Positions 26,179 to 49,700 are shown, counted from the whole stretch's first letter. The stretch is 60,414 bases of DNA, filler included, from Perkinsus olseni (GCA_013115125.1; 2 parts of 2 records of this genome joined end to end with filler, not necessarily neighbours in it); one strand, 5' to 3'. Numbers and translations are program-made. Notes: generated by a model not told the origin, from the letters alone.

Positions 26179-26251
26179 GGCCTCGTGGCCTAACGGATAA
26201 GGTGTTGATATTCTGAACCAAAAATTGGGGGTTCGAGTCGCACCGAGAGCA
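26179..26251 (+). pseudogene. Degenerate tRNA-Arg(TCT)-like sequence
   Basis: 73 nt: GGCCTCG TG GCCT AACGGATA AGGT G TTGAT ATTCTGA ACCAA AAATT GGGGG TTCGAGT CGCAC CGAGAGC A. Canonical cloverleaf spacing, A box TGGCCTAACGG and near-consensus B box, but 2 mismatches in the acceptor stem, 1 in the anticodon stem and 2 in the T stem. Confidence 0.75.
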
Positions 26252-26758
26252 CGTATTCGTTCTCGCAATAAGTGGTGTAATGCACTTCATGTAAGATCGG
26301 GAAGTAAGAGTCGGGCGAAACTCAAGATTATTAAATCATACGATAATAATCCGAGTCCACCAAGCTACGCGAGACACGCAACCTGTAAGCAGTTAATCGA
26401 TCGTACATCCACAAATCTCCCCAGTTGGCCTCCACATGAGAATACCTTGCTCGGTAACCAGATGAAACCGTACGTGATTGAAGAGGTACAGTTCGTAGGA
26501 GCACCAAGCGTAGCGATGGACAACCTCGCTAACGCCACGCGAAGCCCCCTTGTAAGACACACAAGAAATAGGCCGGCAGTGAGAGAAACGTACTGTGGAG
26601 AACAACGTCAGTGACTGTGGTCGAGTGTACTATACTACAGGGAAGTAGTTAGCAGGTACGTAGAACGTAGAGCAAGTAAATGTAGAATCAGCAACGGGCA
26701 TACGAGTCCCAGCCTAACCGAGATGGGACCGTCGTATCGACTCCTGCCAAAGAGCTAT

Positions 26759-28582
26759 TCAATCTCCATTCATTTGAACATCATCATCGCTGATCCCTTG
26801 TTTTTGCTTCCGTTTATCGAGCTCTGTAGCAAGGTGTTGGAGCGGCTCTGTCCACTGGGCGTCTTCAGGCTGTCTCCGGATCAAGTCCAAAGCATGAGTC
26901 ACGCACTCAGAGGCTATGCGGAGAGGCTCAGTCCGATCTAAAAGACAGACTCAAGATCTACCCACTCCCGCAACAGTTAACGGCAATCATCGCTTCTCGT
27001 GATAGAAGAAAAGGACACGACTAGCAGCCGCAGTACGAGAAGAGCCATGTCCGCGCTTCGCACCTATCGCTTCAGCATCTCGCCTGTCTGTCTTGGCTGC
27101 TGCAGCCGCGGTCATGTGAGCACAAGCTAATACGTACCAAACCTCAACTTCATTTTCGTCCTCATCGAGTAATTGATGGAGCACCTACAGCACAGTCGCC
27201 GTGTCGAGGCCAAACATCCGCCAAGTCGGCGTTGAAAGCTCTCAAGTGCACACGACGGACAAATCCCACCTCAATGGCTTCGTCCGAGGCGTCAATGTCG
27301 GTTAAGGTCTTAGCTAACTGCAATCTGATGGGCATGGGAGGTAGCGCCTCGGGATCTTCTTCACCAATACTCCCTGCAAGTCAGTATTAGCGGGCCCGGT
27401 TGCCCCGTGTGAGAGCCCCGTAATACGTGTAACCTCGAGTGCTCTTTTGCACAGTTCCTTGGCCTTATCGAATTCTTGTATAACCTTGTAATACACGGCC
27501 AGACCAGAGAGAGCCTCCACGGATTGCGGCGCACGTGAGACGACCTACGGAAGAATAATGTTTGCCCAGCGATAGAACACACGAGATTTGCAGCAACGCC
27601 CTTCACTACCCCCTCTAAATACTTCTTGCACATTTCTTCGGCGTCGGGCTCGTCGCACATATCGGTCATGTAAAGCTCACCAATAGCGCACATGGCTGAT
27701 ATGAGCCTGCAATGAAGTCCCCGGGCGCCTCAACCCGAGAAGAGAGCCTACCTGGATTCGACCACGCTCCGAACTTCCTCCCCTTCCACTTCCGCATCCT
27801 GAAGTTCATTCTCCAGGATCTGCGCAGCTTTCGTGAAATACTGCAAGGATTCATTCCCCTCCGACAGCTGTCCCAAATAGAAATATCTACCGAAGCAGGC
27901 GACACTGAACTACGAAGCTCTCAAGTTCAAACAACAGAAAGTGAAATTTCACCCTGGAACAGGCTGCACGGAGCGCCAAGCACGCGAGCAGGCCGAGGCA
28001 CGATTACGATTCATATTCTCTCGAAAATTTCGCTCCCGTTGCACTACTTGCTCCCATTGTAATTAGGTGCCAACTCGACACTCCGTTTGAACAGCTCTAC
28101 CGCTTTCTCCACGTCCTCGTTAGAGTACTCCAGTAGTACCTGAGACTTAGCCGATGCGGAAGGAGGGTCGATATTCCTACTACTACCTCGCCGTAGAAGT
28201 CAAGGACGTCTGGGTTGTTGGGTTCGATTTGAAACGCTTTGTCCATATACCTACATGCCCAAGATCTCATCGACCGCCGAGTCTTGTAGAATATCAGAAC
28301 GCTATCCCCCCAAAAACACGTCAGCGAGCAGATTCCATTCCCACCCAGTCCAATAAATGGACCCCTGGAAGTATACTCTGGCCTACAACATCGAGTCCGG
28401 CAGTTCTCCGGCCTCGTGTATGATCAAAACGACCCCAAAATTCCCAGTTCAAGCACTACGCTACCCTTCTACCGTAAGGCCATCTCTCCCTCCGGTGGGA
28501 ATCTTCCCAGACACTCGCTGGCCCGGGATATAAGATCTTGGGCGGTAACGTCCGTCGGAGTCGGGGACCGCCTAGAGGGCAT
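26759..28582 (-). CDS. TPR protein, probable Acl4-like assembly chaperone of ribosomal protein L4 (multi-exon)
   Basis: Spliced by eye: MPSRRSPTPTDVTAQDLISRA..EMALRYMDKAFQIEPNNPDVLDFYGE (TPR), CAIGELYMTDMCDEPDAEEMCKKYL, LLDEDENEVEVWYVLA, acidic tail ...ISDDDVQMNGD*. The ELYMTD.C.E.DAE motif is typical of Acl4-family proteins. Confidence 0.7.
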
Positions 28583-29679
28583 TATTCGTTAACTGTGAGA
28601 GCAGACATCGTCTCCCTCATCCGAGCCTCCTCCATGGTGCATGGAGGCTTCTGGAATCTACGGTCGAGCCATCGTTCTGGCGAGTTCTCCCCTCGCATGG
28701 CCCGATGCATCGGTGCAGGCTCGGCGGAATGGCGAGCGAGAAATGGTCTCGTAAGAGCGCGCGTCTCTTAAAAATCGGGGTGCATGTAAGTCCACCATGG
28801 TCCATGAGTTGAGGTGAATTAGAAGCTCGTATTCAGAGTTCCACCAGTCCTGTGACCTTCTGGTGCTTCGTAAAGTCGCAGCGTTCGGCCCCTGGACATT
28901 GAGATTTAATTTCATGTGTATCCTGGTCGGAGTACACGCACCATCGTGGGTCACCCGTGGGCCAAGGTGACCCGGTCACGGGAGACCTGGGACCTGAGGT
29001 CCCTAGGTGCGCAATTTTTCAATGACCGACCTTTTATACCTCTCGCTCTCGTTGGCGTGGCGCGCAGTTTCAGGCTCTGACCAAGAGATTGTCTCACTTC
29101 TCGGCGTGTGGCTGGAGACAAAAGGCTGAGCAGTGGCTGGTCTTTCTAGGTCACTGCGTATTCTGAGTTTCTTAGCGTTGATGAGTAACCTATCAATTTC
29201 TGGAGCTTACGCGTGTACTGAGGAATGTGTGCGAAAGACCTGTATACCGGCCGTACGTTGAAAAGTCTAGTAGATGTGTGCCTGTTAGATGAACTTGCAG
29301 GAATCCTGAGCTGCGCAGGTGGCATGAGGGCCTTTCGAAGGTTCGACGTTCAGGCGAGGCCATAGGGCTACGAAACCCGGGTGCTACTGAAACTAGTGGT
29401 CTGAAAAGTGGTACGCCATGCTCACACGCGCTTAAGTTTTCCACCTTGGATTTTGCCTCAAGCGAATACCGCTTTGGTCTTGAATACGCACCCACTTTAC
29501 TAAGTATATCATACAGCAGTCCGATCAGGCCAAATTGAGGTACCTGGTCCCGTCGTCAAGATGTCTTTTGTAGCCTGTCAGACCAGAAGGGCGGCTCTTG
29601 CGTGCCATAGTAGAGCATTCTTTCTGTCGTGGTGTTTTGTCGGTTAATGTTGCTTTTGAATTCAGTATTCTTTGTGTAA

Positions 29680-30150: not shown

Positions 30151-30185
30151 CACAAGATCCGGAGATATTGGGCTGCGATGGAGAG

Positions 30186-30285
30186 NNNNNNNNNNNNNNN
30201 NNNNNNNNNNNNNNNNNNNNNNNNNNNNNTTAATTAATTAANNNNNNNNNNNNNNNNNNNNNNNNNNNNNNNNNNNNNNNNNNNN
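30186..30285. other. Artificial assembly spacer (N44-TTAATTAATTAA-N44)
   Basis: Exactly 100 bp. The central TTAATTAATTAA (30230-30241) puts stop codons in all six frames, a standard contig-joining linker. Confidence 0.97.
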
Positions 30286-31583
30286 CCGCGAGACCTTCGA
30301 TGATGCCGAGGACCAGTAGCAGACGGATCATGTTGAGGATAACCACACTTGTTCAACAGACTTCAGTGCGGTTCGGAACGACGCGCGTGCTGCGTTCCTC
30401 CGAAACCGCCCGAGGCGCGCGCAAATACACCTAGTAATCGTAAGGGTCCCCTCGGCCGGGTTGGAGCCCTTTGCGCCAGCTGAACTCGCTCCAGGCGAAG
30501 CCTTGCTAATTTTACTTACGTGATAAAAGCTTACAGATGAAACAGGGTTCAGTAATTTCGACCAACAAAATGCACGCATGCTCATGTGTTGATGCGTAGG
30601 GGACAGCTCTCTTGCGACAAGACTGTGAGGACGGCGCAGAGCTGTGCGGTACCAACGTATGAACCCCCGAAAGGGGCTCCTTCTGGAACCACAGTCACTA
30701 GTGTCGCAGAAACTCTCAAGGGAGTGGGCCGGGACCGGTCGAAACCCGACAGGGCAACCAGAAACCCGAACTGTTATCCAAGGCTAAGCTGCTCACAAGC
30801 GAGCCAGAAATCCGAGCTGTTAGGTGGGTGAAGGCGGGAGTACAAATTTGGGGCAAGGGGTACAAAGAAAAGAGGCACGCACTAAAAAAGTTTTGACATC
30901 GCGAACAAAAATGTTGCCTTCGGCAACACTTTTCCCTTCGACAAGTTCTCCAGTGGAGAATCTCCACCCGAGTTCTATCCGCACACAGCGCGTTTCTCCG
31001 AATTTACGTGCAACTGCAATAAAAGCGCGTTATCGAGGAAGGTCCGATCTTGGAGCAAGTTCAATGAATGAGAGGTTGGGGGCGCGGTGGCGAGCGCGGC
31101 TGCCCGGGCGAGCGCGTGTGTCGTGGAGGAAATGCCGGTCGTCGGTCGAGCGGGTGTGGTCGAGACCTCGAAATTTTTTGGTTTGCGTCATTTGATTGGA
31201 TTGTTTGCGCATGGCAATAAGATCCCAGTTCTTTCAGACCACAAAGGCCGCAGGTTAAGCAGAGAGTAATATCAAGTTGTGTATAATAAAGGGTGTTTCA
31301 CTGCGGTGTGAGTGACTTTGATCGTGGTCCCACTGGCGAGAAATGAGTGTTTGGCGATGAAAATTGGGCCAGAGGGGCTCAATATCATAGAAAGTGCGAC
31401 GCCGGAGTTTGATAGATCCACGAGGTGCGCAGCCAGAATTACAACGCGAAAGGACCTCCAAGGAGCCCCTCCGCTCAGCCGCGTTTTTCTGTCCGACTGT
31501 CCAGCTCCCCTTGCATAGGCATGGCGGCCTTGTGACCCCCCACCCTTTGAAATCGACCCTTCGTGAACAGCTACAGCTGGGCT

Positions 31584-31808
31584 ACACCTCGGAGTTGGAG
31601 ATAATGACCTCGAGCCACGGAACAGTCACGTTGTCCAATGCAGCAGGGTTCTTCCAATGCAGCAGGGTTCTTCACGGTGACAGGGTTCACAAGGACCCAA
31701 ACAGTCGTAGGGCAACACCTCGGAGTTGGAGATAATGACCTCGAGCCACGGAACAGTCACGTTGTCCAATGCAGCAGGGTTCTTCACGGTGACAGGGTTC
31801 ACAAGGAC
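31584..31808. repeat. Near-tandem direct duplication of a 94-bp unit
   Basis: 31584-31696 and 31715-31808 are identical except that copy 1 carries an internal 19-bp duplication (ccaatgcagcagggttctt). Confidence 0.9.
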
Positions 31809-32379
31809 ATATAATGTACCTCACAGGATATAGGAGTAGCACTGAGCAGGCAATATTTCACCACTCCCCCGTAACGGTAACGCTTCCGACGGATAAGGAG
31901 GGAAAATGGTTTAGGGGCGGAGAAAGAGTTTTAGGGGCTGTTGAGAAATGAGTGTTTGATGTGACCCTTATAGTTAACGCAAGCCATCGTACGTAGTCAT
32001 AGGTCTCAGTAGTTCTTCACAGTAAGAGTTCCAAAGACGTCTGAATCATATTGAGCTAACATTGAGACTTCTTCCATCCTATTCTTCCTATGTTTATGCG
32101 TGCTGCTATCATCGAAAGTATTGCAAGTTTCCAAGTTTTAGCAACGAGTTGCAACAGGGGCGGCCGAAGTATTTTAGGGGCGCGCGGAAGTGCAGGCCGA
32201 AAAAAGACCCTGCCGCAACCCTTCTCTCTTGTAACTACGGTCTCCTATTATTGGCCTTATAGTATCTTCGAGCCGCCTGTCAGACAGTCCCTGTTCGGGC
32301 TCATCAACCTTTCCCTCCTTCAAGCGCCCTTTTCTATTGTCCCCTTACAATAAACCGTAAAGGGATACTTTAGTTTTCA

Positions 32380-35300
32380 ATGGCTTCCTCGGTGCCAAGT
32401 GATAGCAAGTCCAATACTGCAACGACCGACTCGCCTTCGACCAGATCGAAAGAGGCCACTGAGGGCAGCTCTATCGCCCCTGAGAGGTCGTCGCCGTCCG
32501 CAGCCCCTCCACCGACGACGACAACAGCCCAGATCGATACCAACTTCGACGCGGTAGAATTTTTCAAGGAGGAGTTGCAGAACGAAGACGCTTGTGAAAG
32601 AGCGAAGTGTGCCAGACGAGTGCATCTCATTGCTAGCCACATAGGACCACAGAGGACGGTGTCCGTGCTGGTAGGCGAGGCATGCTACCGCTAGGAGGAG
32701 TAGCGGTCGTGGATCAGATACCAGTCATTTCGGAAGCCATCCAAAAGGGAGGGGTGTGCTGTGATGATGATGAGGTAGTAGTGGTGGGGAGAGATGATGA
32801 AAGAATGCAGAAATGCAGTTTTTACTCACTTTCGATTCTAGAAATATTGAGAAGTCTGTATTCTTTACGGATTTGCTACTGTAGTAGTAGTTCGGAGAGC
32901 ACGTCGCCCAATCTATTGACAGCCTCGTCATAGATGCTGACAGCGTCGATGTTATAGTAAATTCGCGTTGACCGTATCACCATTCATGCGGATCTAGTAC
33001 GAACTGGTCCATAACCTTGATAGTACTACTACTACTGTAGTTCACAGTCTTCGACGCCCTTTAGGTTCTCTACGCGTTGGCATTGAGCCTCCCGAATCTA
33101 ACTAAGCACGTCGATGGCCGGTATGAGGTAGTGCCTTCAGCGGGTTTACAGTCCTGGTTTCAATGCCATCACCGCCAGGCGCTGGTCCCCCCTCTGGAGT
33201 GCCTCGCGAGACAGGACGAAACAGTCATCAGAAATGCGGCGGTCGATGGTCTGGTCAAAATCGCCGAGACCAGCGAGGCCATCTGTCAGCAGTACTGCTT
33301 TCCGGCCTTGGTGAGGTAGTAGTACCACACCATTCGACACTCGTAACTTCGCGTATCGTCCACAGGTTAGCAGCAGGGGAATGGTTCACGACAAGAGTCA
33401 GCGCATGCTGTTTGGCCCCCGGTAAGATTTCCCCGTCGCCATCTCCCCCCTCATCGCCCGCCAAGGTTTGTACTGCCACTGTACTGAGCAGCAACAAGCT
33501 GAGGTTAGGAGGTTGTTCGCTTGCCTTGCCAATGACGATACTCCCATGGTCAAGAGGGCAGCTGCCCAGCAGACTAGGTTGGCTTCTCGGCTTGCTATCG
33601 ACTTGACGAGGAACGACCTCTCCAGGTACTTATTCGAAGTAGTTGATAAATCGTCTATTATATCAGAGTTATTGGGCATCCATCGTTCGCAGGCAACTGA
33701 TGAGGTTCAGGATGCTATACGGTAGTACTTCGTTCGAGGGGAACTAGAGATGACTACGGTTGGTGGCAAATGAACTGTGCTTGCCTCGGAGCAATCAGGC
33801 CCAAAGTATACGTGGCTGCATGCTGACATTCGGTCACTATCAGTTCATATCACGATATGGTAGATTTGTGGTATTTGAGTAGTTTTATTGGCATACATGA
33901 GCCTCTCCCGAGTTCGAGGAGTGCGCCCAAGAGCGTTTTGCGTGTCAAGTCCCCTTCTGGGAGCGCTACTGTGGCTCAGGAGAGGCTTACGCAACACCCT
34001 CACCACTGCACCAGTAACCAACCGTTGCAAAGTTGTTACCCTAGGGGTGTCAGTATTATCAGCCTCGCGGAAATATTCTGAGAAATTGTCTTCCATGCGC
34101 CGTGCTGACTAAATAGACGGTAGAGGTCGATTATTAGAGCAGTAGCTGGATACTGGAGTTAGTTCTGGCTGGCTACCCTGACGCCCTCTTTCTTGCAGGG
34201 AAGCATGCGTTCATTCCACAATGGTGATGGCTGAGAAGTTAACTGAGGATGATAATAGGTGAGGTCCAAAGACAGGCTCTTATGTCGCCTGTTAGAGAAT
34301 GAATCCACCTACGGTCGGGGTCGTCCAGATCGCCTCATGGCGTGCATTCTGACGAGTGTTTCATAATGACTGTTCCGAATAGTTTCATACCACTCCTTTC
34401 GCTATTCTCAGGCAATACACTGTCTGGGCATTGACATCATTCTTCACGGACCGATCGTGGAGAGTCAGGCTCAGTATGGCTAAGTATTTTGACAGGCTCT
34501 GCAAGGCATTGGGGTAATGGTGATAACATGAACTCTGAGGGGCGGCCCATCCCTCCCTTGCAGGCCAGATTTGACGACATCAGACCTGCTGCAGCCCTTC
34601 ACTGGTCTTCTTAACGACCCCGAGCAGGACGTCCGTATCGCAGCTGTCGAGGCGGTGCAAAAATGTGTGTCTGTCTTGTCGGTACGTTCCCAATCGTGGC
34701 CAAGGAGTCGTTACTAAGGCCGCGGTTCTCCGATCAGGTGGATCAGCTTCAGTCCTTCATAATTCCGCAGTTCTCTAAACTTGCCCTGGACCAAGCTCAG
34801 CCGGTCAGAGCAGCCCTGGCCGATATCATAGGAGGGGTTGCGGAGGCCCTCGGTAGTGAGGGGTGGATTTGACGATTTTGGCGGCGGAGCGAAGCGGCCT
34901 CAGGTCGGGATGCAACACAAAAGACTCTCCTGAATTTGATATTGGATCTCATGAAAGACGAACATCACACGGTTCGGCTGAACATGGTCTCCCAGGCGGC
35001 CACCATATGCGGGGTAAGCGAACCCTTCTAGCGGTAGGAGGAGGGAGTCTGAGCCGACTCTTAGGTGCTGGGCCTCGACACTATGGTCGGATCCGTGCTG
35101 GGAACAGTCCAATCGCTGATCATGGATAACCAGTGGAGGATACGTCTTGCTGTTATACAGCAGATGCCCAAGTGACGAGATACCCCTTCCCGAGGCTGCT
35201 GTATGGTGCTTGCTCTGCTCAGACTGGCCCAGCTTTTCGGTCCAGAGTTGTTTCAGCAGAAATTAGAGGGCCTCTTCTTGAGCAGCCTGAATGACAGCGT

Positions 35301-35984
35301 CTACAGTGTCAGGGAGGCGGTCATCGCTAATATTCAAGTAGCAAGCCGCATACCAAATTTCGACCAACTTAGCGTTCTCTCCTGGTCAGCCCATATCTGA
35401 GGTTTTCGGCTCCCAGTGGACTGAGGAGCACCTCTTGCCCAAAATAGTAGAACAATACAAGCAAGTTCAAGGCCAGGGTTACAGCGGCCGTCTAACGACT
35501 CTGCAGGCGGTAAGGCGTCTCTAGGAGTATCTCTTTCATTGTGTGAGGTGTCAGCTACCTCGACTGACCTTCGTGATGAACTCGGAGCAAGTCGAGCAGC
35601 ATATCATGCCTGTGCTGGTGAAGGCCACTAAGGACCCCGTGCCCAACGTCAGGTATGCCTGGGAGGGGGTTGGGGTCATAGCAGGCTAGCTAGGGTACTG
35701 GAGTTTCGCCCGTTATACGTGAAATGCTCTTTTTCGTGAAGCTCTAGTGTGCTCAGGTTCGCGGCCTGCGAGTGTCTGATTTGGATGCTGGAAAATCATA
35801 AGTTGGAGAACCCGATGATGGTGACACAGTCTTTGGAGCCCACCGTAAAGGATGTCTTGTCGAACGAGCAAGACGCTGATGTGAAGTGAGAATTGTCCAG
35901 GGCAGGGATCGAACCGGGGACCTTTCGCTTGCTAACAGGTATATTGCACAGAAGGCCTTGGATGTCTGTATTAAAGTGACATAA
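32380..35984 (+). CDS. PPP2R1A: Protein phosphatase 2A 65 kDa scaffold (A) subunit, HEAT repeats, about 17 introns
   Basis: FFKEELQNED, IASHIGPQRT, LECLARQDETVIRNAAV, LAAGEWFTTRVSAC, DDTPMVKRAAA, DRSWRVR, DNQWRIRLAV, LNDSVYSVRE, DPVPNVRF, DADVKYIAQKAL. Stop TAA at 35982-35984. Confidence 0.93.
35894..35935 (-). pseudogene. tRNA 3'-half-like fragment (AGC/Ala-type anticodon loop) antisense inside the last PP2A-A intron
   Basis: Minus strand reads TTAGCAA GCGAA AGGTC CCCGG TTCGATC CCTGC CCTGGAC A, the exact spacing of anticodon loop, 3' stem, variable loop, T arm, acceptor strand and discriminator. B box GGTTCGATCCC; T stem only 3/5 paired. Lies within intron 35886-35938. Confidence 0.55.
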
Positions 35985-36338
35985 CAATAGCAGCCTTCGG
36001 AGTCACTTGTAGGAGCTGACCAATTGAATCTGCGCCTCCTGCTGCTGCCTGCCTTTTCACGTTTCTGACACCTCTAGCTAACACTCAGTACAAGCTGCTG
36101 TCACGGCCCGACTGTATATATAAAATTTTCACCATTATCATTGCCGCGGATGCGGAGGAGATCTGCCATGGGGGGCGGGGAGGTTGACCGCGTATCATCA
36201 GATGCCGCTGACTTATCTTGTGACTTGGTCGTGTTGAGAAACTGCAAGATTTCAAGATTTCATAAGAAGCCTTGCGTTGGTGGAATCAGCGCCCACCCGG
36301 GTTACCTCAATCATCAGCCACTGGTTTTTCCGGTCCGC

Positions 36339-39222
36339 ATGAGCAATATAAAGCACTACGGTGACGTCAGCGAAGCGGTCCTACGCGAGGAGGCCGCCTC
36401 TGGCGGCCACCATCCATCGACCAGTACCATACCTTCCCCAACTCCTGAGGGCCCCAGGAGGGAGTCTGAGGTACTATTGGACGGTATTTCACGTATGTCT
36501 GGGTGGTTCCGAAGACCTGTTGTTCGGAGAGGGGTGGGATGGCCAAGATCGTGAGAAAATGAATTTCCGAAGTGCACGAATTTTTGTGGCGCGCGACGGG
36601 AGTTCCAACGCAAGACGACGATCTTGAGATCACCGCCAAACGCTCACTCTGTGGCCAAGAACGCGCTCTCGGAATCACCGTTCCTAAAGCCCTGTCTAGC
36701 AGCAGGAGTAGTAAAAGGAGAGTGGCTTCTGTGACGAATGGAGTCAGGTGCTCCAAAGGGCCAAGCAAAAGGCAGATGACTTGCACAAAGCCTTTGAGGA
36801 AGTTAGGAAGACCAAAGGGGACCTCAGCGCAGCCGTGCCCGGGTCTGACAGGGAGGTCAAGAACAAGCTCAGGCTTATCGGTGAGCCGATTTGCCTTTTC
36901 GGAGAGGATGCCGCTGATCGGAGAGGTCGACTGAAGTTGCTCTTGTCAAAGGGAAAGTATCAGGAGCTCCTGAAGCCCGCAGCGAAGGAAGCTGCTAGAG
37001 GTGAGAACGAAAGTTGCGGTTGGTGTGGTATTGGAAAATTTAGGAGACGATAAGAAGGGCAAGGTCGAGCAGGAGTTGTTCTTCACTATTGGTAGTGAGA
37101 ATTTGAAGGCGAAGCGAAGGAAGCTTTGGGAAATTAGTCGGCAGAAGTCGAAGAAAGTAATTACGGAGTTTATGGTATGGCCCAGAGGCTTCTAGTTGAG
37201 CGTCGTGGTCTCTCAAGAGTGGTGGTCTCTCAAGAACGGCTCCAAGGAACAAAATAGAATAGCTCGGCTCCTCCTCAGCCGATTCGAAGCTGCTTCGGAG
37301 CTGCCGTTGTGTCTTGCTGTTGAATATCCTGGTTGTTCTGGTAGGCTCTGGAGGCGGAGCGAGCTGACTTCCACAAGACCATCGATTACGACTATAACAG
37401 ACGCTTTACGGTCCTTGCCGACGCCCTCAGGTGACCACCTGCCTTGTACGGCCTGTGACGCCACTGCAACCTGCCTCAGATCTGCTCATTCTATTGAGGA
37501 GTTCACCGGAGCTGGCTCGGAGAGTCGTCCGCTGTCACATATCCGATTGTCGAGGGCTGCCAGAGGGGCCGATGCCACCTCGCAGGCTGGCCGGGTCGCT
37601 GTGGCGAGCTGGAGCGGCTATATAGGGGTAGGGTTGGTATCTTAGGTTGAAGCTAGGAAGATATGTGTGTGGTAGATATGGACGGCGGATGAGTCGATGA
37701 AACGCTTGTACACCCTCGGCACGGACGGTCATGGGCACTCCGACAGGTAATTATGACCACTCCCTCAACTCATCTGTTCGAGTGCCTCTCGTGGGAACTA
37801 AGGGTGTCCTCCCTGTACTTTGTATAAGATTGGGGTTGGAAATACTATAACGGAGAATATAGTCATACCATTCATCGCCGACATCGTATCAATGGCCGTA
37901 GTGACACGTCGGCTGAGGTTCTTTCGAAGGGCAATGCCCTGACCTCGCTTGCATATCTTGACACCATGCTGATACCATTTTTCTTGGCACGGGCGGGACT
38001 GAGCCAAAATTGATTTTATTTGTTTCAAGGTTCGACCTAAGATATGCTCTACTTTCTGCTCAGGTGCCAGGCTGTGGCGTGGAACCCTAACGGGCGCCAG
38101 CTAGCAAGTGCCGGTGCTGATCATAACGTAGGCTTGCTGCTGTTCCCTCCTGCAGTACACCATATGGCAGATCTGTATTTGGGACCTGCCGACAGCCGAT
38201 GCTGACGCCAGCATCGACGACCCGGTTTCCCTCCAGCCAGCGGCTGTCCTCGAGGGCCACGAGCTGCGAGTCAACAACGTGGAGTATGTTCCGGTAAATT
38301 GATCTCAAAAAAACTTAGCGGAGCGAAGCTAGGATTGGTGATCAGGTCTACCCGCAGTTGGTAGCATCTACATCACATGATGATACCTGGCGACTTTGGG
38401 ATATCGAGAAGCAGGAGGAGATCTTGCTTCAGGAAGGCCACAACCATCCCGTACTATCCCTCGCCACGGGGACCTTTTCCCATCTTTTCCGGCAGGTTTT
38501 TGGTCTCGCTATTCACCCCTGTGGGTCGCTGATAGCCACCTCTGACATGAGCGGTGTGGTGAGGGTGTGGGACCTCCGTACCGGTCGGACAGTCCTCCCC
38601 CTCACCTACGAAGACGGGGGCCACTGCAAGGGTACGCCGAGCCAAACTCATTTCTCTTGATACATCAGTGCTGGTCTGACTAAGCCGGTCTTCGGCGTTG
38701 GACTTCAAATTCGCGCACACGACGATTCTGACCCACCAATTTTTAGGTGTGCTGGCGGTGGACTTCTCGCCGAACGGTTTCCAGCTGGCCACTGGCGGTA
38801 TGGACAACAGTGTCAAACTGTGGGACCTTCGGAAGCGTCGTAGACTCGAAAATCTGTAAGGTCACGAGTTGCTGAATTTTTGGTATCTTAGCTTGACTTC
38901 AGCCCTGCTCATGAGAAGTTGATTTCGGATGTCCGATTCTCCCCTGACGGTCGACTACTGCTCACAGCCGGCTACGACGGTGTGGCTAAGTTGTGGAACA
39001 CACTGGATTGGACGGACGTTCGCAACCTTCCTGTTGCCTGCAACAAGGTTGGAATTAGTATGTGTGTCGCGGGAGAAGTATTGGTCCGTCCAGGTTATGT
39101 CGGCTGATATTGACGGGTCTGTTGTTGCCACTGCGGGCTTCGACCGTCAGTTTAAGATATGGAAACTGCCTAGTGAGGAGGTGAAGGACGACGATGATGA
39201 TGTTGAGATGAAAACGCAGTAG
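36339..39222 (+). CDS. PRPF4: U4/U6 snRNP protein Prp4 (PRP4 motif + WD40 repeats), multi-exon
   Basis: [34 protein letters not shown] (PRP4/SFM motif), [13 protein letters not shown] repeats [70 protein letters not shown]. Confidence 0.92.
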
Positions 39223-39340
39223 ATTGAGGATGAATCATTTCTAACGTAGTTGTATCATTGTTGCGTCGAGAAGAGTAGTCAAAGAGATTTATCGAGGGTT
39301 TTCGGTTAATGAGCGAGCGAGTGAAAAAGAGCAAAATAAC

Positions 39341-41537
39341 TTAAACAATTTGAACATCATCTGTGGAAGAAGCCTTCTTCAAGAAGGGATCTATGGGCGG
39401 GGTACTCTTGCCAGGGATAGGTCGCAAAGGCCAGCCCAGCACTGGAAGCTGGAGTGAAGTCTCCACAACCTTTCCTGTCTTTGGTTTCAAGGGTGTGAGG
39501 CTTTAGTGTTTTATGCTTTCGACAAGTACAAGGTGAACGGACTGGGAGTTTTATAGCTGCTCGTGGACATGAGCGAGCGAAAATTGAGAGGGAGGATGAA
39601 CCGCTTCATTTCAATTCGGCAGATTTCTCTGCGATTGAATTGGAGCGCTGCTGTTCCTCCGCCTCCCCCACTCGCATACTGTAACTCCACGCTGTGTTTC
39701 GGCAGTGGCCCCGAGTGGCCTCCGCCAGACAGCTGCAATACCCGCCCTCTCGAAGCACTTCCTCCCAATTCCCCGTGGCTGGGCTTTCATGCACTCCAAC
39801 GCTAGACGTAAAAAAGTGGCACATCGAAGACGACAATTGGCATCGGCATCACAGCGACATCAACTTTCATGAGAACAACTGGGAATTCAAAAGGGGAGCA
39901 ACAGGGAATGAATTAACTTCGGAAGGAGGAGGTATGATTATCCTTCCTTCTCAAGTGAAGCAGTACTTTATAAATGTTTTCGCCAGAGATGAAAGACGAA
40001 ATGAAAGAAGTGAGGGGCGAAATAAAAGAAATGAGGGAAGACACGAGAGGCGGGAATTGTCCGTACACCGCAGGAAGCGGTCGTATATAAAAAGGGACGG
40101 ATCCGTTTTTCCCAGAATGCGAACTTCATGCCACCATCCGTCAGCCAGTGGAAAATATGAGTGATATGGGTTGGTCCCTGGCCTCCATAGATTCTTACCA
40201 TTCTGTCATAGTTCAACGGCCAGGTATCAACCGCAGCGTTATCGCCAGGAGGCGAGATGTAGTTACTGTAGGCCTCCAGTTGCCTAGCGGCGATTTCTGT
40301 GGCACTTTCCGCGGACGAGTCAGCTGACTCGGGGGTGACTTGCTCGCTACGAGACAGCAATTCACGTAACTTGTCCGCGTTGAACTTGGGCGTGACAACC
40401 CTGCGAAGAAACAAGGTTCCGTAACCGGGACTCAGCGGGAAGATGGAATACTTCGCTTGTGCAATCAGTACAGTAGAAACGGCAGCGACGCATTGTTGAT
40501 TATCGCGCTCACTGGTAGGCCAAAAGTGAGTTCAGTGACTGCGAGCGGCGCTCGATCTTCCACGCCGCGGCCATCGTAAGCTACGCGAATCATTCCGTTA
40601 CACAAAATCAGCAAGTATTGGCGACATCGTTTCCGAACAGGGTTAAATAAATTTAGAAAAGACATTCAAGTTGGATATTGTTCTATCATTCGACCTACCA
40701 CCATTCCTCCTCAATATTGGTTACCAGTTCGGCCTTCAGGGCAGTGAGCTTGAAGCTCTGGTCAACACTTGGCCTGCGCAAGTAAATCTGGTAACGGATT
40801 ATCAGCTGAAAATTTGGCAAGAAATCGACGCTCATCCCCGCTCGCTATGGCCCTACCAAGCGGTTCGAGGGAATCATTGAGTGCGCAAGTTCAACGTCCT
40901 GAACTCTGGTGGCGTACAGGTCCCCGTTGGCGGCCCCACGCTTGAAGTGCTAAGCATATTTCAATAAGAGCCCCCAGCCGAAGCTGTGCATCAGCTGCGT
41001 CTTAAGTGAAGCCGGTGTGGACTGTGGGATCTTCTCAACAGATTTCTTGTTCGGTAAATAACTGTAGTCTTTCAATACATCCTCATCCGCCACCACTGAA
41101 AATCTGACGTTACCATTGTGCCTGAGGAGGGGGAGGTGTGGTAGGCTCCTTCCAGAGGCCTTACCCCTTCGGATACTCCACATGGGTGACATCCATAAAG
41201 CGGGTTCTTTCTTTTACCGGCTCTGCAATGATTCCGACAACAGTCTGCAATAGTGACAGTACGCAAGGGGCCATGTGGTGACACCCAGTGAGACTGTCTT
41301 GCTCCGTGTCACCACACGGCGTCTTGTCGAAAATCATTCCAATACGATTACAATGAGAGAACCTTACAGCGAGGTCCTCACCTTGGACATCGTAGCTTTC
41401 TCATCTGTAAGGACTATGGTTGTGCTCGTCGGAGCATCGGGGGTGACACTTGTCAAGCGGACGGCTGCTGGATGGGATAATGGTGTCGATAAGGCGGCAA
41501 GGGTCAGGAAGCGCGACAGGGCAGTCTGTCGGGCCAT
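39341..41537 (-). CDS. Hypothetical multi-exon protein with signal-peptide-like N-terminus
   Basis: Start MARQTALSRFLTLAALSTPLSHPAAVRL at 41537 followed by a GTGAG donor. Coding-like blocks at ~40.9-41.3k, 40.07-40.38k and 39.5-39.9k; plausible end ...FLKKASSTDDVQIV* at 39341. The exon structure is uncertain. Confidence 0.45.
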
Positions 41538-42531
41538 GGGGAGGTTGGAGACGACTGACCAGTGAACCCTTCATCACGATAGAGGGAGTACGGATTGGCT
41601 GTCTACAGGCAGGCACAAACGCAAACGCCTATCAAACGCATGCCATCGCTTCGACGGGGGTGCGTTCTCTTGCTGCACGAAATCTCGCATAGAACCTTGC
41701 TTCGGTCAATTGTCAACAGACAATGAACAACTCAATGCCCGAGCCACGGTAGGACTCGGCTGAGACCCAATCGAGAAAACTTTCCAAGCTCTCCTGGAAA
41801 ATCTGAATAGCACTTTAACGAGTCAGTTTCTAGGGTGATTGTAATCGTCGACGGTGTTCCGTTTCGGAAGCATCAAAAAGTCATCAGGAGCGGGTAGTGT
41901 CGGCTCACCCTCCTTACAGATTCCATCGAACTGCAGCACTCTCAGTCAGCGCAGAATGAGTTACGGATACTCGTACGCTCGAAGTTGCATTCCGCAACGA
42001 GTCTTGGGAAGGGTGATGTCGGCCTTCGTTCACTTTACGGCCGGCTTTTCGTTCTGTATCTCTTCGTGTGTGTGTGAGTTTAAAGTCCAACGCCGACAGT
42101 ACGGCTTAGTTAGACTAGCATCACCGACGTACCTTTCTGAGGGCGATTGGTTCAGCCTGTTAAATAGGCTCTGATCGTCAAGCCAAAGAACGTCGCTCTC
42201 AGAGCATCGAGGTCATCGTCAGCTGAGGTATCTCTTTGCAGCGGAACAGGGTAACAGGATACGTTTGTGTGGTCAGTAGTAGAGCATACAATGGGGGTGT
42301 CACTCGTGTGGTACACTCTTATTGACTGTATTTGAAGTCTCTCATAGCTGCATCATCGAAAAGTACTATTCCGTATGACGAGCGATTCACTCAAAGCCTT
42401 GCTTTTGTTTATATTTTGGACATCCGGATACCCCATCGCACACTGAGTTCACACTATCGTCATGGCTGACACTGGACAACCCAAGGGCATGGGTGATCAC
42501 TATGGAAGCACTGCTGGACACGCGCATGCGG

Positions 42532-43945
42532 TTAGATTTCGGCGTCAACCAAGTCATAGTCATCATCGTCATCTTCATCATCGTCTGCTTCCTCCGCTTC
42601 CTTATCCCAATCCACGTCCACCTAATTACCGCAGCATGGCTGCTAGCGAAGACCGACAGTCTTACATGCGTCTCAGCGGCCGACACGACAACTCGGCCGT
42701 CCTCGTCAACTTGTGGCTCGCCGGCATTACGGATGACGGTCCCTGAGCAAGGCAAGACTCATACCGAGGAGTCCAACAAATTCGGTTATTCCCCTTAATG
42801 AGCTCCGATCTGATCGAGTTGCGGTACAGAACGAGAGAGGGAACAATTCGCTGACGAGCTCCCCAGGGCCTCTTGTTACGGGACCGTCGACGAGCGATAG
42901 TGGAGCACCGATACTCCGATGAAATTTGAAGAAGCCTTCGTTCGACACCTTCCTTGTGACCTTCCTACTGGAAGCCTCTTCCTCGACATCACTATCATCA
43001 TCCATCGCTTCCAGTTCAGCATGTAAAGCAGCAGCCGCTCTCTCAGCCCGTCTTCGTTCGGCAACCTACGATCTACCGCGGCACGCTCACCCACGACCGC
43101 CTGATGGTACCTTGGCCTGGGCCATGGCCTGCGGTGCTATGAGGGTGAGGATGTCCGGATTGCGAGTGAGCAGCTCGCAGTTGAGCCCAGTGGACGTGGC
43201 GTCCTGTGAAGACCGACGCTCCGTCATTAACGCCCGCAACTAACTCACGTTGAATTTCACTTTGCCAGAGCTCAAGAGTACTTGAACGGTCTTTGCATGC
43301 CTCTTGTGCGGTCCAGCACATGCTCGATGGAGAGGCTGCAGACCGTCCCTATGCTCATGACGAGGACTCACGCCCGAGTCCAGGAGGGCCTCCATCACTT
43401 TGTACCGACCTGAGCGTAACCACCCCTCCTCGAGACGCAAACCTTCGGCCAGTCAGGCCCGTCGCCACCTTGAAAGGCGGCGGCGTCGATCGGCGTGTAG
43501 CCTTGAGGGTCCGCGATGGCGGGATCGGCGCCCTGCTGCAACAGGAATCTGACCGCCCACGGCTGTCCTGACAGAACCCATGATGAGTCAAAGGATGGGA
43601 GACTGGCTGCTGGTGCCCACCCGCGATGGTGGCGGCCATGAGGGGCGTGTGGCCCATGCCGCCCTTCTCATTGATGCTCTTCTGGGCGGAAGAGTCCTTG
43701 AACAGCTGCCGCAACTGCATGATGTCCCCTTTACGAGACAGGGCCACGAGGGGGGTGTCCCCTGCAGAACAGGGTTACAAAATTCTGCCGAGCCCCGAGG
43801 TCTCACCTTCGACGGTGTGCAGCCTATCAGCCATCGCGTACGGGTCATCCTCTGGAATCTCCCCAGGGGCAGACGCTTCGGTGATGACGACAGCTCGGAG
43901 GGTGGTGAGGAGGGCGGTGACTTTGCACGTGGCCAGCAAAAGCAT
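42532..43945 (-). CDS. Ankyrin-repeat protein with acidic C-terminus, multi-exon
   Basis: GDTPLVALSRKG, GHTPLMAATIAG, FLLQQGADPAIADPQGYTPIDAAA, GLQPLHRAC. Tail ..EEADDDEDDDDDYDLVDAEI*. Confidence 0.75.
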
Positions 43946-44546
43946 TTGAGAAAAGGAGCTAGAGGTGTCAGAAAGAAGAGCGACGGAGTGACGCTGCACG
44001 CAACTCCTCGGCGACGCACGTGATGGAAAAGAGCTGGCGGGATGGAATGAGGCGGATACTATCAGGCGAACGTGCGTGGAGCACAGGTTCTATCCCGGCA
44101 GGCCGGCTTTTTCCGAAATATTTACTCTATTACTGCTATTACCAGACTTAGAAATTAGGGTACTACTAAGGACTACTAGGACGACGACCGCAGCAGCGGC
44201 AGCAGCAGCACCCACTGCCGACAACAGAAAGAAGCGCGAACAGCGAATTGGCGATGATGACCAGCGCCCTCGGTGTGACCGAGGTGATACTGATACAAAA
44301 AAGGGGAAACAAAAGATGAGGCAGCAGCAGACGACGATTAGCGGCCATTGGCCGAGACTCCGTTAGAGTTCTTCAAGTCTGCTCAAGAATTCAAGATTGG
44401 CGAGAAGAAGAAAAAGAGTGGAACGAATGTGTTCTCGAGAAGTACTATAAGAAAAGCGACGCTGGCGAGAACAGGGATAAACTTCATACTGTTACTAGAC
44501 TTCACTGGGGTGGTGGTGTTGTCGGTAGCTGGGAGGGGCGTGAGGC

Positions 44547-46665
44547 TCAGTCCTCATACAGGATACCGGGATGGGTGTTGCCAAAGTGATGCGATCCATC
44601 AACTAGCTGAGGCCCTCCGCCATTGCCGCCGCTGGTAGTGTTGTCGTAAACTGGGGAGCTGGCGAATGGGTAGGAAGACACGCCATTGCCGCCGCTGGTA
44701 GTGTTGTCGTAAACTGGGGAGCTGGCGAATGGGTAGGAAGACACTCCATAGTGGTGATGGGCAGGATAGGTCTCATTATACTGCTGCTGGTGTTGGTGTT
44801 GGTGGTTATTAGCGTATCCCTCACTCCGAGGGCTGAATCCCGTCCCAAAGGGGGTCTCATTCGGGCCTACAGTCCGGCCACTCGAGGACCTGGTGCAGTA
44901 ACTCTCCGCACCACCGCCACCGCCACCAAAGTGAACAGAGGTTTGGATAGGAGGCTTGGCAAGGATGGAGGGGCCCCCGCCTACTGCTACTCCCGATTGT
45001 TGGGACTCCTCGAAGTAGGATGGCGATTCACTGCTCGGGTTTGTGCTGGCGCCGTTGACTACGCTGGGCCAGTAGGCTCCACCGCTCTGTGCCGCCGCGG
45101 CCGCAGCAACCTGACATTGGAAATCGCCCCGTTTCACGCGACCGTACTCTTACCGCAGCAGCAGCCATCTGGTGCATCTGATGGCTTCTGATGGCGGCTG
45201 CAGTGGCCATCGCTCTGTGCATGGCCATGGCAGGATCGTCCGTCGGCGGAGGGTTGAGTAGGGCGCCAGGGTGGTGTTGATGAGTGTCCCCTTGGGGAGG
45301 AGGCAGTTGACTATAATAGTACCTGAAGGTCAATCGGCCGTTAAAATTCTGACTCGACTCACGAAATCTTGCGCGTGCGCGGATTCCAGAGCCGCAGAGA
45401 TTGAGATTTTACGTACTGCATGTCTACTTGACTGGGAGCATGACGAAACTAACCCTGTACCACGGTTTGGCAACTCACCCAGGGTAAGCAGCATGAGCAG
45501 CAGGTAGTCCCTCCTGTTGCTGATGGTAGTTCATTACCATCATCGGATGGTGATGATGATGATGCGCAGCATAATGATGATGATGTCCTTGCACGCTCGA
45601 AGTCGACGAGTGTAGGGTCGGTGCCACCACAGTACTCGGGCTACCTGCGTTGTTCCTGTTGCCAGCAGCAACCGCCGGCCCCGGGTAGGAGCCCGGAGGC
45701 ATCAGCAAGCTGGGATGCTGTAGAAGCGGATGTGCGGCATACTGATGATGATGTCCACTCTGGCTCCCCCCTTGTGGCCCTTCATACCGCGCTCCTGGGA
45801 GGGCATTGCCTCTCTGCTGTTCCGTCCAGGACTGCCGACGCCGTCTGCTACCACTCCCAGCAGACCTAGAACTACTCTCTGTCGGAATTGCGATGCTGGT
45901 GCTCCTCGGTCGATTGCCTCTGGTCTTCTCCCGAGTCACCGCTGCCTTACCAGCAACCTTAGACTGCTGTGCCGCCGCCGCCGCTGCCGTCGACGGTTGC
46001 TGCTGCTGCTGCTGTTGCTGATTTTTCATAACCTCCAAGCGCTTGGGCGGATTCCTTTGGTCACCATTATCCTTCCTTGGCCGCTGGCCCGGGTACATCT
46101 CCCTCAGCTTCCGATCCACGCTGTTATCCAGATTATAGCAATAGCGTCTCATGCCAGTTTTCATCTCCTCCTCAGTGTGAGCGAATCGACAATTATCCCC
46201 AGCTCGACACCTGATACCATACTTACACGCACCCTCCATCAGCCTCCGCGGGACGAAGTGGATGTCCTCCACGCCGTGACCATAGAGGCACTGCCCCTCG
46301 GCGAATCTCTGGCAATGCCCATGGGCTTCATATTCCGGACACGCATATGACTTCGGGTCCTTGAGCTCCTCCGGGCAGTGAGCGTAGGGGCAATCGTCAC
46401 CGGCCGAGCATCCTCCTTGCCGCGTGAGAAAGTAGATACAAAGTTTTGAACGGTGGTAGTAATCAACATAGTCGGGACGAGACCGACTTTGACCGAAGTC
46501 CTTCGATTTCTCGGGATCTTCACCAGCTTCTAGTCTGGAGGAGCTGGAAGCCGGATTTCCAGTCCTCGGTGAACCTCCAACAGTCAGACCGTCGCCACTG
46601 TTATTAACCTCTTCCCTGCCGAGCGACTCTGAGTGGTTCACCGCACGATCAGGAGATACGGTCAT
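44547..46665 (-). CDS. CCCH zinc-finger RNA-binding protein with Q/H/S-rich disordered tail
   Basis: CIYFLTRQGGCSAGDDCPYAH, CPEYEAHGHC..QCLYGH, CKYGIRCRAGDNCRFAH, followed by polyQ and polyH tracts. ATG (MTVSPDR) at 46665; one intron inferred near 45.33-45.48k. Confidence 0.8.
44619..44744. repeat. Perfect 63-bp in-frame tandem duplication
   Basis: Two identical copies (44619-44681, 44682-44744) encoding VSSYPFASSPVYDNTTSGGNG. Confidence 0.95.
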
Positions 46666-46789
46666 AGTGAAGGAAGGCTGCCAGCGGTGACCTCCCAGAT
46701 TAACCAAATACAACAACCATCCGAGAGGCTAAGAAACCAGCAGCGGCTGTGGGAGCTGCTGTCCTCATTTACGTTCAGGGAGCCTTTTC

Positions 46790-49700
46790 TCAGCCGGAGT
46801 GCTCCAGACTGGTTAAGGTCCTACAAACCCGGATGAGGCAACGCCGGATCCCGAGGCCTCGTCTACCTGTGGAGATCGTTGGTCTGCTCCGTAATGTGCT
46901 CCAACGACCTCTGGTGGATGTTCAGAATCTTCACCAGACTCTGCAACGCTGTGGGCTCCGTGGCATCGCTAGCATCTCCGGCGTAGGTAGAGCCCGCGAG
47001 CTGATCATGTTTGTATCACGCTTCAACCTAAGATTCCCATCCTACGGATTTGGTGGTAGCCATGAGCTCCTCTAATTGCCGCTCCATGTCGTCCAGCTGC
47101 CCAGACACGGCCACCGCTCTGTCACCAACTAAAGAGACCATAATAATGCCCACGCCAGGATTCGAACCCGGGATCTCCAGCTTACCACTCGCTGCCTCAT
47201 TTTTCCCGCGTTGTACTCCTGATAGCAGCGTAGAGGCCGAGCCGCCACTACTGACAGAGAGAGCGGTCCTTGGCCTTCGCCAGGAGCCCCGAGCACTCAC
47301 TTTGCGCCCCCGGCCACGCCGCCGCCAGCGCCCTGCATCTCCTTCATAACAGCCTGCTGGACATCCTCCAACAGCTCACCAAGGGACTGCTGTTGACCCG
47401 CTATTGATGCCAGGGCCGAGTCCACCTGCCGACGCCGTACCATAACTTTCCCAAATTCCAGATTATCACTGCGAATGAGCGGAGTATGCTATTGTTTCAC
47501 TAGGCTCCGTTGGATCAGCTACAGAATCCACAGAGACTCGAGCGAGTATCAACTGCCATAGCGATCAAGGCCTCCCTTGTTGCCCCATGCCATCGCCCAA
47601 CATCAGTTAGAGAATACTACCATCTGCGCCGTGTTCTTCAGTTGCACATGCTGAGCATCGAGAGCCCTGAGCTCCCTGGTCGCCTGGATCAGCTTGGAGT
47701 CCACAGCGAGGACCTCTGACCCGTACTGGTTGAACTGATTGGCTTGCATAGACAACCTGAATCAACACTTCGTCCCACTTTTCGACCTACTCCTGCGGAT
47801 AAAGCACAGAACTTGCGTCCATTGCGATCTGAGGTCAGGGGTTTTCGACGTTGCTGAATTCGACGGAACAGTCGGCGTGTCGAAGTTCGCTATCCTCGCC
47901 GAGGCCCGCCCGTTCGCAATCTTTTCACTGCACACGGTGGCGACTAACCAACATTTATCGTATCAACGGGACCCCAAAAAAGGACCATCCCAGTAGCTGC
48001 ACATAAGCACTGCGTGAAATGATCTCGCCGCGGCAGCCGATTACAGTCAGCGGATCTCAGATCGGACTGCACGCAAATTTCACCCTTGACAGCGGGACGC
48101 CCTGTTCTACCGCTACTACCTTTGGTCCCATAAAGTAAGGACATCCGTAAGCTTCCTATGCTCCAATACTCCCACACGGGCGCCGCCGGTGGCGGTCGAG
48201 GACGACGAAGAAGCCGGCGCAGCTGAGAGGCCCAGTCGTACTCATTCGGTGTCCAATTCCATCCGACCGCTCACCTCCGAAGAGCCCACCGCCTCCGCTG
48301 CTGCTGCCAGTGGTGGCAGACCCGAAGAGGCCCCCACCACCCGAGGAAGATGAGGTGGAAGAAGATGATGAAGCTGGAGCCGCGCCGAACAGGCCACCTC
48401 CTGCAGCCGACGACGATGACGGAGCAGCACCGAAGAGGCCGCCACTGGAGCTGCTGCTGCTGCCGCCGCCTGTGCTGGCCGGAGCCGCACCGAAAAGGCC
48501 GCCAACAGACGATGATGAGGCAGGCGCAGCTGAGAGATTCTGATCAACGGACGCGATGGTGTATGCCCACCTACCACCAAAGAGTCCACCGCCGCCCGCA
48601 CTGCTGCTAGCAGGAGCGCTCCCGAAAAGCCCACCACCAGCAGCGGACGAGGAAGATGAAGCCGGGGCCGCGCCGAAGAGGCCTCCCCCTCCAGAGCTGC
48701 TACTGGCGGGTGCCGCACCAAACAGGCCACCACCACTGGAGCTGCTTGCGCCGGCCGGGGCTGAGCCGAACAGGCCGCCACCACCGGAGCTGCTGCTGCC
48801 TGTGCTGGCCGGAGCAGCACCGAAGAGGCCACCGGCAGTTGACGAGGAGGAAGCGGACGCTGGAGCTACAGACGGATCAACTTAACGGAATTCCGTGCCT
48901 TCGACGTTCTTACCGCCGAAGAGGCCACCAGCGCTGGAGCTACTGCTGCCGGTAGTGGACGCACCGAAGAGGCCACCTGTACCGCTAGAAGACGTGGCAG
49001 CTGGGGCACCTGAGAGCTCACAATACGTACTGAGGGGCCCACATGGCACAACAGCATAAGAATAATTACGGACGAGTGGCGAGAGAACCAGAAGCAGTGA
49101 AAGGGGACCCGCCAATTCGACCGCGATCGGGGATGATTCTGTTGAGCTTCGGTCCCTCCCGGGCGCCATGACGAAGCGAAGTTCCTAGACTGAATGGATC
49201 CTTCTAACATGCTATTGATGGTCCCACAGAGGACTTGGAGCTCTTTGCCGTCGAGCGAAGTATTAAGGGCCTTCCTGCTCTTACCGCCGAAAAGGCCGCC
49301 TCCGCTGCTGCTACTGCCTGTCCCGAAGAGTCCACCGCCGGAAGAGCTCGAACCCGAGGCAGCTCCTGAAGGGTGGCGCACTATCGAAAAGAGCCTTGCT
49401 GCGATGTCGTGAGACCTACCGAACAGGCCACTACTAGCGGCTGACGAAGACGCCGGAGCCGATCCGAAAAGGCCACCTCCCGCCGCGGACGATGCTGGGG
49501 CAGCACCGAAAAGGCCGCCGCTGGCAGATGACGCTTGGGCTCCCCCGAAGAGACCGCCACCACCAGCTGAGGACGAGGCTGGGGCTGCACCGAAGAGACC
49601 ACCGCCGCTGGCAGCAGACGAGGCCGGCGCTGCACCAAAGAGACCACCACTAGCAGCAGATGCCGGGGTGGCACCGAAAAGGCCGCCACCGCCGGCTGCA

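Follow-up and report, generated by a model that had tools for sequence, protein, structure and literature searches.

The repair of chromosome breaks with captured DNA is an accepted route of spliceosomal intron gain (accessible text of PMC3443670), and break repair has also been treated together with intron density (excerpt of PMC3020277). Here we describe two introns in a stretch of Perkinsus olseni DNA (GCA_013115125.1; 60,414 nucleotides (nt) including filler, referred to as a whole as the window) that consist mostly of sequence resembling the 3′ half of a transfer RNA (tRNA) gene. In known intron gains from inserted DNA, a short foreign piece in a coding exon is spliced out and its source is abundant cellular DNA, and the two introns look similar. 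Their source would be a tRNA-gene fragment, and the flanking direct repeats found at 43% of Daphnia intron gains (accessible text of PMC4202315) were not seen. Our literature search turned up neither tRNA-derived spliceosomal introns nor, for Perkinsus, any introner; the word "tRNA" occurs 0 times in the accessible text of a 2012 intron-gain review (PMC3443670) and of the Daphnia study (PMC4202315).

Introner elements of Micromonas, Aureococcus, dinoflagellates and Amoebophrya are short introns whose body is an inserted repeated sequence, which is also how the two introns appear, and the Perkinsus lineage is close to Amoebophrya. In contrast to introners, the tRNA-like introns showed no near-identical copies in the window, no inverted repeats and no target duplications, and the tRNA relics differ from each other in sequence and orientation.

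A second group of described systems concerns tRNA genes themselves. In Perkinsus marinus, Kojima and Jurka (2013, PMC3706591, accessible text) counted 349 Leu, 116 Gly, 46+9 Ile and 23 Tyr genes, more than 500 copies of five types, and described five Dada transposon families that insert within tRNA genes. The premise of an expanded tRNA gene family is therefore already known from that text, and such an expansion would make both intact and broken tRNA gene copies common. The P. marinus Dada families, from the same organism group, target Ile, Leu, Gly and Tyr genes, most of them at the A box, and in fish Dada-tA cleaves tRNA-Ala within the anticodon loop (same text). Unlike Dada-split tRNA genes, the relics described here read as Arg, Ala-like and Thr-like, the triplets of the two intronic halves (AGC and GGT) are outside the target list, and RNA-verified exons rather than a transposon abut both halves, although no search for a Dada transposase was made. 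tRNA-derived short interspersed elements are also dispersed tRNA-like sequences with internal promoter boxes. Their heads retain the 5′ part, A box included, whereas the intronic relics keep the 3′ part only and have no tail. Finally, extra-TFIIIC (ETC) sites of yeasts and animals are consensus B boxes that stand alone, apart from transcribed tRNA genes. They are defined by occupancy and not by sequence, while the relic B boxes are known here from sequence alone.

tRNA relics in the window

Three tRNA relics were found, one between genes and two within introns:

26179–26252, plus strand: relic 1, a decayed full-length tRNA-Arg(TCT)-like gene relic, intergenic (Rfam, ARAGORN and the half-tRNA models R1 and R2 described below)
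35886–35938, plus strand: last intron of the PP2A-A gene, 53 nt, GTGAGA...CTAACAG, of which relic 2 makes up 42 bases (RNA contig ends, homology)
35894–35935, minus strand: relic 2, a tRNA 3′-half-like stretch from an anticodon-loop position to the discriminator, antisense to PP2A-A, with AGC at the anticodon position (pattern AGRTCNNNGGTTCGANNCC, R1)
47129–47185, minus strand: intron of a Nup62-like gene, 57 nt, of which relic 3 makes up 39 bases and a T-rich trailer with TAG the last 18 (RNA joint, database protein P0013)
47146–47188, minus strand: relic 3, a tRNA 3′-half-like stretch, sense to the Nup62-like gene, with GGT at the anticodon position (R1, T arm, 19-nt pattern, Rfam)

Both halves carry an exact B box (GGTTCGATCCC and GGTTCGAATCC) and thus match, on sequence, the consensus of putative ETC sites. 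The plain B box GGTTCGANNCC has three matches in the window (0.44 expected), a number reached by 0 of 100 shuffles. A longer 19-nt pattern, which joins variable loop and B box, has two exact matches, relics 2 and 3, where 100 shuffles averaged 0.00; if up to 2 mismatches are tolerated there were 3 matches against 0.87 expected, and 5 of the 100 shuffles reached 3. In prokaryote genomes the 19-nt pattern occurs at at least 115 loci, and 100 of the 119 matches listed lie within ARAGORN tRNAs on the same strand. Among these listed matches, ARAGORN tRNAs contain 5 of the 6 occurrences of the exact relic 2 word and all 4 of the exact relic 3 word. The isotypes of the pattern-bearing tRNAs vary, so the T arm is uninformative on isotype.

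Half-tRNA models were built from 56 unique, pattern-free tRNAs with a short variable arm, selected from 178 ARAGORN tRNAs at the listed prokaryotic loci (122 were dropped). Model R1 covers tRNA positions 32 to the 3′ end and was run on both strands with filters off; model R2 covers positions 1–38. R1 gave 16 matches in the window at E up to 10, the first three of which cover the entire model. The first is relic 3 (47146–47188(−), 38.6 bits, E 4.2e-7, model 1–43), the second lies in relic 1 (26211–26252(+), 15.0 bits, E 0.18) and the third is relic 2 (35894–35935(−), 12.3 bits, E 0.78); the fourth match scores 10.3 bits. The relic 3 match starts at position 32 and takes in U33, A37-A38 and the 3′ strand of the anticodon stem. 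All 5 pairs of its T arm are retained, one as G-U, and Rfam gives it a local tRNA match of 13.3 bits; across 47100–47300 Rfam has weak local matches only, to tRNA and mascRNA. The halves thus match a model of positions 32–73 and have a T arm, with relic 2 borderline when taken alone. R2 gave 8 matches at E up to 10, the best being the 5′ half of relic 1 (11.4 bits), and none within or beside either relic intron. Its second match, a D-arm-like hairpin at 34795–34814(+) in a PP2A-A coding exon (11.2 bits), is taken as chance.

DNA contigs bear on relic 2 in another way. In the DNA run X1, 8 contigs align from 35905 on with unrelated sequence ahead of this position, and three of them stop at 35923–35927. 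About 22 nt of the relic 2 T arm and variable loop (22–23 nt) are therefore common to other loci, as real tRNA genes would be. DNA depth is 529.8 in the bin of this T arm and 205.8 in the adjoining bins, an excess that may be read roughly as tens of copies. The DNA-contig joints 35923>45543 and 35927>37637 were not counted as further tRNA fragments: their sides are just 22 nt, and one ends in an ATG-repeat. No second copy of either half was found within the window.

Relic 1 fits an ordinary tRNA pseudogene. It is the sole tRNA-like Rfam match in the whole window at E up to 10 (26179–26251, 26.5 bits, model 1–71) and falls short of the gathering score (29). Its Rfam alignment has unpaired positions in the acceptor, anticodon and T stems, and its B box is one mismatch from consensus. 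ARAGORN called zero tRNAs across the window at default settings and only relic 1, as tRNA-Arg(tct), at thresholds of 95% or 90%; the 12 calls at 85% were noise for the most part. Relic 1 is therefore short of the full cloverleaf at or above a curated threshold that makes a tRNA gene (Rfam RF00005, ARAGORN), and halves cannot qualify as one.

The independent models recovered the same three sites as a preliminary description of this DNA, reproducing its inventory of one full-length decayed Arg(TCT) relic and two 3′ halves with consensus B boxes. Its statement that the relics lie on both sides of an assembly gap also holds: N runs at 30186–30229 and 30242–30285, which flank a TTAATTAATTAA linker, are between relic 1 and the halves.

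Host genes and the two introns

The window is eukaryotic with about 53% G+C, and the DNA runs of one organism contain 0.99–1.00 of its sampled words. One of its exon products, 783 amino acids long, has a database match of 100% identity, followed by P. olseni and P. chesapeaki proteins at 63–64%; the sole named P. marinus match is a paralogue at 49%. Judged by these protein matches, P. marinus would be the most likely source. Contigs from three RNA runs (X7, X8 and X9) and one DNA run (X1) were mapped onto 30300–49800. RNA contig cover from these runs is missing over parts of 39414–42017, from which nothing is concluded. The two host genes are:

32363–36244, plus strand: PP2A-A gene (PR65/A scaffold subunit, HEAT-repeat), 17 introns, stop codon ending at 35984 (RNA contigs, tblastn and splice mapping against P0014)
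46790–49762, minus strand: FG-repeat nucleoporin (Nup62/Nsp1-like) gene, stop codon 46790–46792, six RNA-supported introns in the 3′ part, upstream end approximate (joints, spliced frame, PF05064 in P0013, FG-repeat open reading frames)

PP2A-A is spanned by RNA contigs of 2209 and 2247 nt, from 32326/32363 to 36244/36245. For its last intron, contigs of X8 and X9 resume at 35939 and set the acceptor side, and homology together with the reading frame gives the donor side. Once spliced, the junction DADVK|YIAQKALDVCIKVT is identical to the P. chesapeaki protein P0014, whose end (...DADVKYIAQKALDVCIKVT) fixes the intron at 35886–35938.

For the Nup62-like intron, the joint 47128>47186 (GT..AG, minus strand) was present in X7, X8 and X9 but in no DNA contig. 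The joint 47250>47301, which removes a 50-nt intron (47251–47300), was likewise in 3 of 3 RNA runs and in no DNA contig, and a 65-nt exon separates the two introns as the preliminary description had modelled. After splicing, the open frame continues across a C-terminal domain of the Nup62/Nsp1 type. The database protein P0013 (188 amino acids, Pfam PF05064) is nearly identical and lacks precisely the 19 codons of the 57-nt intron. A protein search with the Nup62-like exon found this near-identical protein only, and no divergent orthologue with which to compare the 21-amino-acid mini-exon. P0013, whose near-identity is to the C-terminus encoded at 47046–47756(−), comes from a 1,194-nt contig and is labelled Perkinsus olseni and named "charged multivesicular body protein 3". 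The label or the name is probably wrong, given that other P. olseni orthologues are about 64% identical. The relic intron is a multiple of three without an in-frame stop, so its retention would add 19 residues and not truncate the nucleoporin.

Both relic introns are thus real spliceosomal GT-AG introns of conserved housekeeping genes, as had been proposed. They were compared with all supported introns (n=28, 3,070 nt), comprising 17 of PP2A-A from the P0014 mapping, two with uncertain borders, and 11 introns with RNA joints in two other genes. (An ab initio short-intron predictor gave 72 clusters on the plus and 103 on the minus strand, mostly false, and was used for no count.) Nineteen of the 28 are 43–57 nt long, with a median of 50. 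The relic introns had been called minimal in length, which is roughly right for the class, but within these 19 the 53-nt intron is the third-longest (17th) and the 57-nt intron the longest (19th). Exact B boxes occur in 2 of the 28 introns, where intron base composition predicts 0.022.

X1 contained no intron-less DNA contig at either relic intron. A metagenome scan with the P. chesapeaki PP2A-A protein found 3 intron-less, contiguous, transcript-like loci of 42–47% identity, which say nothing on intron positions.

Origin of the two introns

The analysis establishes tRNA-like sequence in the two halves, genuine introns around them, and relics that take up the larger part of each intron. From this anatomy we infer insertion and intron gain: our preferred explanation, held tentatively at a probability of about 0.45, is that pieces of tRNA genes entered exons and were introns from the moment of insertion. 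The two cases hint that stray pieces of tRNA genes can become introns.

The proposed course would be as follows. The tRNA genes of a tRNA-rich Perkinsus genome would leave 3′ pieces at the DNA level, each beginning near the anticodon loop, covering the T arm and acceptor strand and extending into the 3′ flank of the gene, without CCA. Such pieces would enter coding exons, for example as filler DNA in the repair of a chromosome break. They would be spliceable from the outset, so that each insertion made a new short intron, with the splice signals coming largely from the fragment itself. In the sense copy (relic 3), G|GTAAG of the anticodon loop would serve as donor and the T-rich 3′ flank with TAG as acceptor. 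In the antisense copy (relic 2), the reversed 3′ flank would give the donor GTGAGA and the reversed anticodon loop a CTAAC-type branch site, followed by CAG.

The amount of other sequence in the introns argues for gain and against a passenger fragment in an older intron. Without the relics, 11 nt remain in the PP2A-A intron and 18 nt in the Nup62-like intron, while all 28 supported introns are at least 43 nt long, the shortest being 43 nt. The 3′ ends of the relics are also informative. The letters following the discriminator are ATT in relic 2 and TTA in relic 3, with CCA in neither; relic 2 continues into the reverse complement of the donor GTGAGA and relic 3 into a T-rich stretch that ends at the acceptor TAG. 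Such ends fit a tRNA-gene fragment that includes 3′ flank, or a precursor, and not a copy of a mature half. The lack of CCA disfavours retroposed mature tRNA halves, and junction repeats, which such a retrocopy should also show, are missing as well.

Several observations weigh against gain from tRNA-gene fragments. There are only two cases, and both were spotted through the B box. The third exact B box of the window, at 9607(−), is in coding sequence just ahead of an intron and has no further tRNA feature. Relic 2 is weak on its own sequence evidence (12.3 bits, E 0.78): its T stem retains 3 of 5 pairs, and Rfam has zero matches in 35840–36000. The longest word shared between the junctions is 4 nt in both relic introns and 2–6 nt across all 28, so neither has the short direct repeats expected of break repair or insertion. 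The isotype calls of relics 2 and 3 are unsafe because their triplets coincide with splice signals, AGC with the CTAAC-type branch site on the opposite strand and GGT with the donor G|GTAAG, which cuts relic 3 between G34 and G35. A threonine gene with GGT is unusual among eukaryotes. A tRNA-Ala is expected to carry U70, which is not present in the acceptor strand of relic 2, leaving the Ala isotype unsure.

These results also qualify what had been claimed earlier. Intron gain by capture of tRNA fragments agrees with the anatomy (42 of 53 and 39 of 57 bases), but junction repeats are not unusual and retroposition of mature halves, one of the proposed forms, is disfavoured. The break at the anticodon loop fits the alignment of relic 3 from position 32; it is unprovable, as the "anticodon" letters double as splice signals. 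Of the different isotypes, Arg(TCT) stands as called, but Ala for relic 2 and Thr for relic 3 are uncertain.

The weakness of relic 2 could suggest a mere chance likeness of GC-rich intron sequence to a T arm, as its E value is 0.78 and Rfam finds nothing there, and Rfam gives relic 3 13.3 bits only. Such a coincidence is very improbable. It is close to refuted for relic 3 by the E value of 4.2e-7, and it does not account for the two 19-nt pattern matches against 0.00 in shuffles or for the excess of B boxes in the 28 introns.

The relics might also be neutral debris: fragments would land anywhere, be purged from exons and survive in old introns, which later deletions would shrink to a favoured length of about 50 nt. 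The published tRNA expansion (PMC3706591, accessible text) agrees with this, as do the intergenic place of relic 1 and the absence of junction repeats, and the tight clustering of short introns at 43–57 nt suggests a pressure on length. The debris of a large tRNA family, which the preliminary description had listed among its hypotheses, gains some support from this expansion and from the 8 DNA contigs that share the relic 2 T arm. As the origin of these introns we nevertheless consider it unlikely, for it demands near-total deletion of the old intron with the insert spared, down to 11 and 18 non-relic bases, and relic ends at both splice sites in both cases.

A further explanation would be selection: B boxes or T-arm hairpins may have been kept as predicted TFIIIC sites without polymerase III, that is, ETC sites, a known class (PMC3395662, accessible text), or as intron RNA structure. 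The 11-nt B box is perfect in both halves while the adjoining T stem of relic 2 has decayed, as selection might leave it. This integrity is an ascertainment effect, because the relics were found by their B boxes, and the B box of the full-length relic 1 carries one mismatch. We regard a selected function as improbable.

Possible intron families, repeats and a possible route of intron birth in Perkinsus

Other introns in the window share sequence with each other. Two RNA-verified introns of unrelated genes have 23 of their first 26 bases in common, including an exact 15-mer (37628–37653(+) and 47020–47045(−)). With a score of 15 this pair tops the 378 pairs of intron heads (mean 2.5, sd 1.7), and partial copies of the core are nearby at 38029–38043(−) and 38880–38896(+). 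The shared head may point to an intron sequence family or a shared motif. Rfam found nothing meaningful in the region of this motif. Reading the 15-mer as the antisense anticodon arm of tRNA-Leu(AAG), or as a spliced-leader relic, was rejected for lack of consistent stems or register. The second-best pair (score 13) consists of the PP2A-A introns 32671–32717(+) and 35014–35064(+), which have a TAGGAGGAG-containing stretch in common. A possible intron-like stretch of 52–56 nt at about 38000–38055(−) ends in ATTTTGGCTCAG, which presumably resembles the 3′ end of the dinoflagellate/perkinsid spliced leader.

Intron sequence families bring in the last alternative, in which a mobile or reverse-transcribed family repeatedly seeded introns, either introner-like with a tRNA-derived module or as 5′-truncated retrocopies of pre-tRNA. 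The relics are 3′ parts only, with 3′ flank and without CCA, as expected of 5′-truncated copies of a precursor. The shared head of two unrelated introns also speaks for such copying, DNA contigs hold the T-arm piece and the shared-head motif together (joint 35927>37637), and the related parasite Amoebophrya is known to have introner elements (PMC7789003, accessible text). Against it, the relics derive from different tRNAs and lie in opposite orientations to their host genes, neither has a second copy in the window, and terminal repeats, poly(A) and target duplications are all missing. The head of the T-arm intron is only weakly like the shared-head family (score 6, same mean and sd). A copy-and-insert element therefore appears rather unlikely.

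Two other stretches of the window have raised DNA depth. The region 31602–32252 reaches an RNA contig depth of about 1.4e5 (X7) and a DNA depth of about 28× single copy. It is rich in variants, RNA ends carrying adapter occur at 32067/32068, and its appearance is that of a multi-copy small RNA or repeat with high expression; Rfam had no match there at E up to 1. A short repeat at 42057–42120 has a DNA depth of about 20× single copy, many loose contig ends and inverted copies at 38692–38720 and 14908–14937; it is possibly the end of a small mobile element or a shared regulatory motif.

A wider form of intron gain from tRNA-gene fragments would be a route by which introns arise, or once arose, repeatedly in Perkinsus. 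Here 3′ pieces of amplified tRNA genes with their flank would be pasted into coding exons in an introner-like, polymerase III-seeded manner, and the intron family with the shared 26-nt head would be a second product of the same intron-copying activity. Splicing would be immediate, as the anticodon loop and the T-rich flank would resemble splice signals whichever way round the piece is inserted. Such a route would possibly leave TFIIIC-binding B boxes within polymerase II genes. We regard it as unlikely at present. A "system" of dispersed tRNA genes as raw material, as first proposed, is not established by one pseudogene and two introns, and the earlier interpretation is partly supported overall.

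The origin of new spliceosomal introns is a long-standing question, and recognisable source sequences, such as transposons and mitochondrial DNA, are rare. In the window, two RNA-verified minimal introns are still recognisable as tRNA-gene fragments, in Perkinsea, the sister group to dinoflagellates, where intron turnover has been little studied. If the pattern fails genome-wide, they would be ordinary tRNA debris tolerated in introns. If gain from such fragments is true, tRNA-gene fragments would be a new donor class for introns.

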